From Sphyrna mokarran (Eukaryota), in NCBI GenBank assembly GCA_024679065.1, contig JAGIQG010000026.1, forward strand, positions 36,022,001 to 36,086,000: a DNA stretch of 64,000 nt. The letters are read 5' to 3'. Every line of letters starts with the position of its first letter. The stretch's first letter is position 1. The notes beneath the pieces are model-generated. The model did not search any database. It was not told the origin of the DNA and saw only the letters and a program-made list of their open reading frames with translations. The translations under genes and the position numbers were made by a program. Shown here piece after piece: positions 24,463 to 26,505 of the stretch.

Positions 24463-26505
24463 CTTGGTGAGTGTGTACCTGCTGGGCGGGGAGGGGGTGG
24501 TCGAGTGGGGGAGCCATGGTGTGCTAGGGAAGTTGAGTCTCTGGTGGGGAGGAGGAGGGAGGCTTATGTGGTGATGGGACGTGGGGGCTCAGTTGGGGCA
24601 CTGGGGAGCTGTAGGTTGGCCGGGAGGGAGCTGGGGAGGGAGTTGGGAGGAGCTGGAGGGGGACACGAGAGGACTTTGACGGATGGGATTAGGGAGAATC
24701 CTGAAGTTTTTTACAGGTATGTGAATAGTAGGGGATTGGTTGGGACAAGATTGGGGCCGGTCGGAGATGGCAGTGGGGGGGTTGTGCGTGGAGCCTGGGG
24801 AGATGGGAGGGACACTGAATGAGTGTTTTTCGTCGGTATTCACGCAGGAGAAAGACAATGTTGTCGGGGAGAATACTGCGATACCAGGTTGTAGACTGGG
24901 CAGGATTGAGGTTCATAAGGTGGAGGTGTTAGCGAATCTTGAGGGTATGAAAATTGATAAGTCCCCTGGGCCAGATGGGATTTATCCTACGATTCTCTGG
25001 GAGGCTAGAGAGGAGATTGCAGAGCCTTTGGCTTTGATCCTCATGTCGTCGTTGGCTACAGGTATAGTGCCGGAAGACTGGAGGATAGCAAATGTTGTCC
25101 CTTTGTTCAAAAAGGGGAGTAGGGACCATCCTGGAAATTATAGACCGGTGAGCCTGACTTCTGTTGTGGGCAAGGTCTTGGAAAGAATTATAAGGGATAG
25201 GATTTATAAGCATCTAGAGAGAAATAAATTGATTAGGGATAGTAAGCACGGTTTTGTGAAGGGTAGGTCGTGCCTCACAAACCTTATTGAGTTTTTTGAG
25301 GAGGTGACCAAAGAGGTAGATAAGGGTAAGGCTGTTGATGTAGTGTATATGGATTTTAGCAAAGCGTTTGATAAGGTTCCCCATGGTAGGCTACTGCAGA
25401 AAGTGCAGATGCATGGGATGGAAGGTGATTTAGCAGTTTGGATTAGGAATTGGCTAGCTGATAGAAGACAGAGGGTGGTGGTTGATGGGAAATATTCAAC
25501 CTGGAGTGCAGTTACAAGTGGTGTACCTCAAGGATCTGTTTTGGGGCAACTGCTGTTTGTCATTTTTATAAATGACCTAGATGAGGGTGTAGAGGGTTGG
25601 ATTAGTAAATTTGCTGACGATACCAAAGTGGGGGGAGTTGTAGACAGCGAGGATGGATGTTACAGTTTGCAGAGGGACATAGATAGGTTGCAGAGCTGGG
25701 CCGTGAAGTGGCAAATGGAATTCAATACGGATAAGTGTGAGGTGATTCACTTTGGTAGGAATAACCGGCATATGAAATATAGGGCTAATGGAAGGACCCT
25801 TAATAGTGTTGTCGAGCAGAGGGATCTTGGGGTACAAGTACATAGCTCTTTGAAAGTTGGCACCCAGTTGATAAAGTTGTTAAGAAGGCGTACAGTGTGT
25901 TAGCTTTTATTGGTAGAGGGATTGAATTTAGGAGCCGTGAGGTTATGTTACAACTGTACAAAACTCTGGTGCGGCCGCACTTGGAGTATTGCGTTCAGTT
26001 CTGGTCGCCGCATTAAAAGAAAGATGTGGAAGCATTGGAAAGGGTGCAGAGGAGGTTTACCAGGATGTTGCCTGGTATGGTGGGAAGGCCTTATGAGGAA
26101 AGGCTGAGGGACCTGAGGTTATTTTCATTAGAGAGAAGAAGTTACGCGGTGACCTAATTGAGGCGTATAAGATGATCAAAGGACTGGATAGGGTGGACAG
26201 TGAGAGCCTTTTTCCTCGGATGGTGATGACCAACATGAGGGGACATAACTTTAAATTAAGAAGTGGTAGTTATAGGACGGATGTCAGAGGCAGGTTCTTT
26301 ACACAGAGGGTGGTGAGAGCGTGGAATGCCCTGCCTGCAGCAGTTGTGGACTCGCCTACTTTGGGGGCATTCAAATGTTCGGTGGATAGGCATATGGATG
26401 ATATTGGAATAGTTTAGGTTAGAGGGTCCACTGGCCGGCGCAACATCGAGGGCCGAAGGGCTGTACTGCGCTGTAATGTTCTCTGTTCTATGTTCTATGT
26501 TCTAT
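24463..26505 (+). mobile_element. 5'-truncated CR1 LINE inserted in V2 promoter; 5' ~480 bp A-to-G hypermutated
   Basis: 387-aa RT ORF 24740-25903, (TTCTATG)n tail; promoter sequence resumes at ...tataactggctcc (26510). Confidence 0.93.

Follow-up and report, generated by a model that had tools for sequence, protein, structure and literature searches.

A-to-G hypermutation of the ADAR type is reportedly found in Rous-associated virus as well as in avian leukosis virus (work ascribed to Felder, 1994, and to Hajjar and Linial, 1995). According to the accessible part of one source (PMC12925331), close to 50% of adenosines had been replaced in an inverted repeat of an avian retrovirus, and in avian retroviruses as well as in HTLV-2/STLV-3 about half of the A in the paired region became G and were recorded by reverse transcription, likewise to what is described here for CR1 copies of a shark. 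These viruses, however, carry LTRs and their cases are apparently infection sequences, whereas the shark case concerns a non-LTR element, with many independent events in an assembled genome and one extant likely source. Another close system is the APOBEC editing of endogenous LTR retrotransposons (Knisbacher and Levanon), in which the same type of strand-biased, single-class clusters was recognised in genomic copies by subfamily comparison (PMC4866542, accessible part). There, the class is G>A on the sense strand, due to cytidine deamination of the cDNA of LTR elements, while in the shark it is A>G, most likely due to adenosine deamination of the RNA of a LINE.

ADAR editing of inverted repeats in transcripts is also similar, in the sense that the duplex is formed by inverted repeats and that G is depleted 5' of the edited sites (PMC2873906 and PMC3113232, accessible parts). 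Nevertheless, transcript editing is transient and appears as a difference between RNA and DNA, whereas the changes of the shark CR1 copies are in the DNA. Regarding LINEs, the accessible part of PMC5224506 describes truncated L1 pairs that are edited in brain transcripts, and a restriction of L1 by ADAR1 that works without the deaminase domain; over more than 2.5 kb, the study found retrotransposing L1 RNA to be free of edits. Hence, judging from the available parts of these sources, both the editing chemistry and its recording by reverse transcription (in retroviruses) are already known, and so are the germline scars of APOBEC in LTR elements. Among the openly accessible literature, with PMC2873906 and PMC5974252 included in their available parts, we came across no account of LINE copies that carry ADAR edits and have become fixed in germline DNA. 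RNA editing is usually held to be transient; the tracts presented below indicate a route of A-to-I edits into inherited vertebrate DNA, with dozens to more than 100 changes in one step, which parallels the G>A footprint of APOBEC in LTR elements.

The window copy and its A>G tract

The window, that is, the whole stretch of 64 kb of shark DNA analysed, contains four clusters of immunoglobulin light-chain genes, in which V exons, C exons and recombination signals are present, a clustered layout of Ig genes that is typical of cartilaginous fish. In one of the V genes, a 5'-truncated LINE of 2.04 kb (24463-26505) is inserted between the octamer of the promoter, ATTTGCAT (24428-24435, + strand, located by motif scan), and the leader, which makes the distance from the octamer to the leader exon 2 kb longer since the insertion. 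The promoter can be aligned to those of the clusters paralogous to it, situated at 43.6 kb and 59.9 kb, where the empty site is seen. Downstream of the LINE, at 26597-27100 (+ strand, profile and motif scan), lie the host leader, an open V exon (Pfam V-set) and a heptamer-12-nonamer recombination signal, all unrearranged. The 5' junction between host and truncated element has a microhomology of two bases (TC, 24461-24462, + strand), sister copies being alignable from 24461 and host paralogs up to 24462. On the 3' side, alignment with the empty paralogous sites places GCTG at 26506-26509 (+ strand), which, compared with GCTC at 24459-24462, is possibly an imperfect target-site duplication of four bases. 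A DNA contig leading from 24462 into empty-site sequence was considered as an empty allele and rejected, given that it fits the paralogous cluster instead. The insertion may have silenced this light-chain cluster; the V gene 3' of it has kept its open frame and a canonical recombination signal despite the displacement of the octamer by 2 kb (24428-26597).

The inserted copy starts at base 1876 of a 3.9-kb element and has the features of a LINE, namely the 5' truncation, a (GTTCTAT)n microsatellite 3' tail and no LTR. On the basis of its architecture and tail, and following the preliminary description of this DNA, we take it to be a CR1. A full-length member (L121, about 3.9 kb) encodes Exo_endo_phos and RVT_1 in one ORF. 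The subfamily of the window copy is young, with copies 96-99% alike, and one motif of the tract has exact matches at 1,827 places of the genome surveyed (2.77 Gb). The common polymorphic columns of this subfamily are mosaic among the copies and not tree-like, a pattern that suggests template recombination or conversion.

As reference for counting substitutions, we took the majority base of each column in an alignment of 55 copies that belong to the same subfamily and genome. Between 24463 and 24830, 59 of 124 A read G in the window copy, the remaining differences being three C>T, two G>A and one A>C (six substitutions), together with one inserted base. The changes form a tract at 24466-24825 (+ strand), in the part of ORF2 between the endonuclease and RT domains, and the first of them is 4 bases from the junction. 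Such a subfamily alignment had been proposed in the preliminary description, and the excess of A>G that it reported holds in it, with 59 against 6 other substitutions; its base counts were exact as well (26 A, 102 G and one AA in 24481-24660, with 19 of the 26 A after G, and 56 A and 68 G in 14821-15000 of the CR1 used for comparison). When the reference is limited to 28 copies picked by their unedited RT part, A>G amounts to 57/122. The changed sites carry A in 94-100% of the rows of the other copies, so the subfamily is not G-rich over the tract, and the G-rich consensus that had been envisaged as the weak point of the proposal does not exist. The family background of A>G is 0.47% per A, which gives the tract a binomial p of ~1e-100, and the comparison with the rest of the window copy yields p 2e-41.

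The bounds of the tract are sharp. The remainder of the CR1 (24826-26505, + strand), comprising the RT region (Pfam RVT_1, E 4e-34), the 3' UTR and the (GTTCTAT)n tail, is unedited, with 3 A>G among 447 A over 1.66 kb (1/32 in 24831-24945 and 2/415 in 24946-26490); the gradual fading down to about 24945 that had been described before is thus replaced by an end at 24825. Position 24835, where G is a variant common to 6 of 51 copies, lies outside the tract. That the bias halts at the insertion edge was confirmed, the host flank having only 1/66 and 1/32 A>G with respect to the two paralogous promoters. Sense-strand clustering of G>A, as APOBEC3 would leave, is not observed in the tract (2 of 123 G). 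At the protein level, the tract alters 37 of 105 codons (R>G and K>R are the main changes) and creates no stop; the systematic shifts noticed previously are therefore real to this extent, although some of the quoted differences stem from the different subfamily of the copy then compared. The A>G changes have also made a GC box, GGGCGGGG, at 24484-24491, 50 bases behind the displaced octamer. Elsewhere in the window, 17490-17860 is another very G-rich, C-poor stretch, which resembles a degenerate simple repeat.

Neighbouring bases influence which A is changed. For the 5' neighbour, the changed fractions in the window copy are 24/32 after A, 18/27 after T, 6/14 after C and 11/50 after G, the latter against 48/73 for A after other bases (p 1.7e-6); for the 3' neighbour they are 33/56 before G (p 0.03), 11/24 before T, 13/33 before A and 2/10 before C. 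In eight further copies, pooled, the fractions are 0.74 (T), 0.69 (A), 0.43 (C) and 0.15 (G) for the 5' neighbour and 0.54 (G), 0.52 (A), 0.47 (C) and 0.38 (T) for the 3' neighbour. For the 5' neighbour, this ranking is close to that of hADAR1, given as U>A>C>G in the accessible part of PMC3113232; for the 3' neighbour, where the enzyme's order is G>C~A>U, the preference for G is weak or not significant in several single copies.

Support from DNA reads, which had been suggested as a check, was obtained for the 3' part of the tract, where a Logan DNA contig (run X1, depth 4.6) equals 24706-24855 with 0 differences and has 18 changed sites inside. Read cover is absent over 24479-24695, the G-richest 5' 220 bases of the tract, and the independence of run X1 is uncertain, since it may correspond to the assembled individual.

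Further tracts on the element sense strand

Motif probes and similarity searches across the genome, in the direction of the scan for clustered sense A>G that had been proposed, led to A>G tracts in nine further CR1 copies, all of them on the element sense strand, and to no mirror T>C tracts. The first motif, for which at least two of four changes were required, retrieved only the window copy, L002 and L143. L002 belongs to the subfamily of the window copy and has its own tract (24 A>G among 37 substitutions), at another insertion site and with another 5' end; both copies have 16 changes in common, against 13.7 expected from the context (p 0.12), and a common ancestry of the two tracts was rejected on account of this sharing at context expectation and of the different site and 5' end. 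L143 was discarded as unrelated, unedited and of a different subfamily. A motif in the RT region gave three matches, one of which is a copy of an older subfamily (L144/L147); the other two (L145 and L146) are G-rich simple sequence and were rejected. A search with the L144/L147 copy brought in another edited copy, L158. Finally, a sense probe for a conserved RT site, designed after L147 and L158 were known, had ten matches, of which eight are hyper-edited, one is weak (L196) and one is unedited (L194); apart from L147 and L158, the hyper-edited matches are six new copies with 14-162 A>G each. In eight further copies, A>G makes up 770 of 996 substitutions.

Edited copies are scarce at both probed sites: 2 of 1,827 (~0.1%) at one and 8-9 of ~50,200 (~0.02%) at the other, for which a relaxed motif has 50,196 exact matches in the genome. 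These counts are lower bounds, because any motif catches only some of the edited copies. In 10 of 10 copies the tract begins 4-103 bases from the 5' end, and it finishes between about 40 and about 1,740 bases before the tail, the motif-found copies being conditioned on covering the probed site. In two of them (L002 and L197), about 100 unchanged bases precede the tract. The weak match, L196, is truncated at its 5' end and shows, in its first 45 bases (L196:4919-4962), hardly any change other than 5-6 A>G, which are possibly a mini-tract shortened by truncation.

T>C tracts were searched for with antisense mirror probes, one of which had 0 matches and another three, with no tract among them and one match lacking relatives for comparison. 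Similarly, in 299 kb of the young subfamily (148 unique segments, most of them retrieved by similarity) two clusters of A>G were seen, and T>C, G>A and C>T formed none. The tracts lie on the RNA (element sense) strand only, within the small numbers that ten sense tracts represent. Hidden edited extensions 5' of the BLAST ends were not detected, the best score there being inside the random range.

A retrocopy and its likely source locus

One of the edited copies, L147, has a counterpart elsewhere in the genome. Its insert of 3.0 kb, in which a CR1 of the young subfamily is nested in antisense, can be aligned throughout to a locus on contig C927 that contains a head-to-head CR1 palindrome. The insert begins 116 bases into the arm and stops precisely at the tail, and on neither side do its flanks agree with those of C927. 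Excluding A>G, 33 of the 39 private variants of L147 are common to the + arm of the palindrome (10/60 for the best unrelated copy), and the whole insert differs from the locus by 167 A>G and 37 other changes. L147 is therefore likely to be a retrocopy of this extant, unedited locus, as judged from the alignments, and such a source/retrocopy pair makes the editing route directly testable. The unit (L147:2736-5750, contig C760) thus consists of two CR1 subfamilies in opposite orientation that were retroposed as one piece of 3 kb, a composite that points to mobilisation in trans. The nested young CR1 was also considered as a later insertion into L147, which was rejected, given that it is already present in the C927 source locus.

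About 90% of the 1,250 bases around the centre of the C927 palindrome are predicted to pair. The two segments of L147 matching the inverted arm have 122/271 and 43/112 A changed (165/383 together). The nested antisense insert of 1.3 kb, which would loop out of the predicted hairpin and hence lie outside the duplex, has only 2/358, and the last 310 bases have 0/78. That the changes skip a looped-out insert and then resume makes a polymerase error or a DNA process acting on the whole locus unlikely. The C927 locus is tandemly duplicated (98%), and the arm adjoining the complete copy pairs only to L201:4675, whereas the edits reach 4936; the arm of the neighbouring duplicate reaches the full tract, but would cover the unedited last 310 bases too. 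Because the former is too short and the latter too long, the 3' bound of the L147 tract may have been set by the start of the transcript or by protein at the tail. A test based on A:C mismatches in the source hairpin was set aside, since mutations that the source acquired later confound it.

Origin of the tracts and candidate duplexes

At a probability of about 90%, we attribute the window tract to CR1 RNA that would have been double-stranded, hyper-edited by ADAR (A-to-I) and then fixed by target-primed reverse transcription. This reading is supported by the spectrum, the strand, the neighbour ranking, the sharp bounds, the recurrence in other copies and the likely source of L147 with its 5' inverted arm. 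Editing before reverse transcription and a heritable footprint were already put forward in the preliminary description; they gain from the same evidence, nine more copies and the L147 pair among it, while they continue to be deduced from DNA and the partner strand of the window copy itself was not found in the searches given below. Mechanistically, a read-through transcript coming from an inverted CR1 arm upstream would enter a sense copy and fold back; ADAR would deaminate as much as about half of the A in the duplex; the CR1 ORF2 protein, probably in trans, would prime at the free 3' tail and set C opposite I; reverse transcription would halt in or just past the duplex; and second-strand synthesis would fix G. 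Such a halt would explain that the tracts hug the 5' end. In addition, since priming needs the tail near the 3' end of the RNA, a partner in cis would have to lie inverted upstream of the copy, and the duplex would then come to the 5' side of the retrocopy, in agreement with the observed tracts. The location of the tracts at the 5' end bears on the cause of LINE truncation, and a LINE reverse transcriptase would have to traverse inosine-rich RNA for more than 1 kb.

The position of the tract onset in all ten copies is also what error-prone second-strand DNA synthesis from the 5' junction would give, if a polymerase of the eta/iota type, or one working at low dATP, set G opposite template T before handing over to an accurate enzyme; moreover, the 5' A/T preference is akin to the WA motif, which is the preference of polymerase eta. 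This is largely refuted by the skipped and resumed changes of L147, and it is further opposed by the clean first ~100 bases of L002 and L197, by the near absence of A>T, A>C and indels and by a rate near 50%, far above the few percent of error of polymerase eta, so that we hold it to be very unlikely. Deamination of the DNA itself once the copy was inserted, by ADAR or by a different adenine deaminase that attacks RNA:DNA hybrids, would come with the same neighbour preference, and ADARs do edit the DNA of DNA:RNA hybrids in model substrates (PMC12925331, accessible part); but it would be expected on either strand and with spill into the host, whereas only sense A>G tracts are seen and the host flank is clean, which leaves it slightly less credible still. 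Editing of the first-strand cDNA, for its part, would be expected to yield T>C and not A>G.

The location of the window copy invites yet another explanation, namely that somatic hypermutation of antibody genes, by AID and polymerase eta, leaked onto a CR1 sitting behind a V promoter; the tract starts 30 bases behind the octamer. Against it, C and G are at background (three C>T, two G>A), the V gene has not been rearranged, a bias of this kind is missing from the empty-site paralogs, and the nine similar tracts are on other contigs or far off on shared ones; we consider it the least probable of all these alternatives. A sequencing or assembly artefact, or a minor G-rich subfamily, fares little better, being hardly probable and placed between that leakage and a deamination of DNA. 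In its favour, the stretch is in one run only, at depth 4.6 and for the 3' part alone; however, the X1 contig agrees at all 18 changed sites, the trace artefact described in the accessible part of PMC2873906 is G-to-A, and ten loci with context-dependent, element-oriented tracts are unlike base-calling errors. As for a minor subfamily, a G-rich version of the window copy was not found at any other place (best 84%, with 40 scored of 1,109 candidates), and just 2 of the 1,827 motif matches are edited.

Does the preferred reading, ADAR editing of CR1 RNA, imply a defence? The preliminary description had suggested a restriction mechanism, which the data do not favour: edited copies are as rare as indicated above, and the restriction of human L1 by ADAR1 is reported to be editing-independent (PMC5224506, accessible part). 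As the events are rare, restriction by editing is not supported; the fossils would mark the escape of edited RNA and not a defence, and a loss of most edited RNAs, which would leave no fossil, may nevertheless have taken place. An edited copy is a rare by-product, whose own coding capacity is destroyed, rather than a demonstrated defence, and due to this rarity the effect on genome composition is small. Nonetheless, the tracts record the preferences of ADAR and past double-stranded RNAs of the germline. In a broader sense, we lean towards head-to-head CR1 pairs being a standing source of ADAR-edited hairpin RNAs that are retroposed in trans, in which case the genomes of cartilaginous fish would hold a fossil record of germline A-to-I editing, each copy would map a vanished duplex, ADAR would act as a germline mutagen and the duplex would set the point of 5' truncation.

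An inverted partner for the window copy was not found by BLAST in the 64-kb window or in 30 kb beside it (three 10-kb stretches), nor did self-comparison and 370-base folds of three full-length copies reveal a long inverted repeat (z down to -3.6, with about half of the bases paired). Only one other copy has two of the private variants of the window copy, and it lacks an inverted neighbour and is different at another 26 sites. A search for head-to-head copies separated by gaps of 150-500 bases returned two loci of the same subfamily (L150 and L230), neither of them its source. The source or partner may have been lost, may be unsampled or may have been an antisense RNA in trans. As to the enzyme, PF02137 includes the ADAT1 and ADAD genes besides ADAR, and adenosine-deaminase exons assigned to this family as a whole are present at seven contigs of the genome.

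Head-to-head CR1 palindromes joined at their truncated 5' ends were observed at L150:3213-7148 (contig C771, 1.336-1.340 Mb), with arms 97.6% alike, and at L200/L201 (C927, 1.356-1.363 Mb), with arms 90% alike. Such pairs may have originated when an inserting copy folded back, or when two copies entered the same break. At L230:2727-5557 (C1326) there are an internal inverted duplication of 166 bases and a short fold-back at the junction, with no editing relative to the family as far as scanned; judging from this arrangement, its RNA would carry a built-in hairpin.
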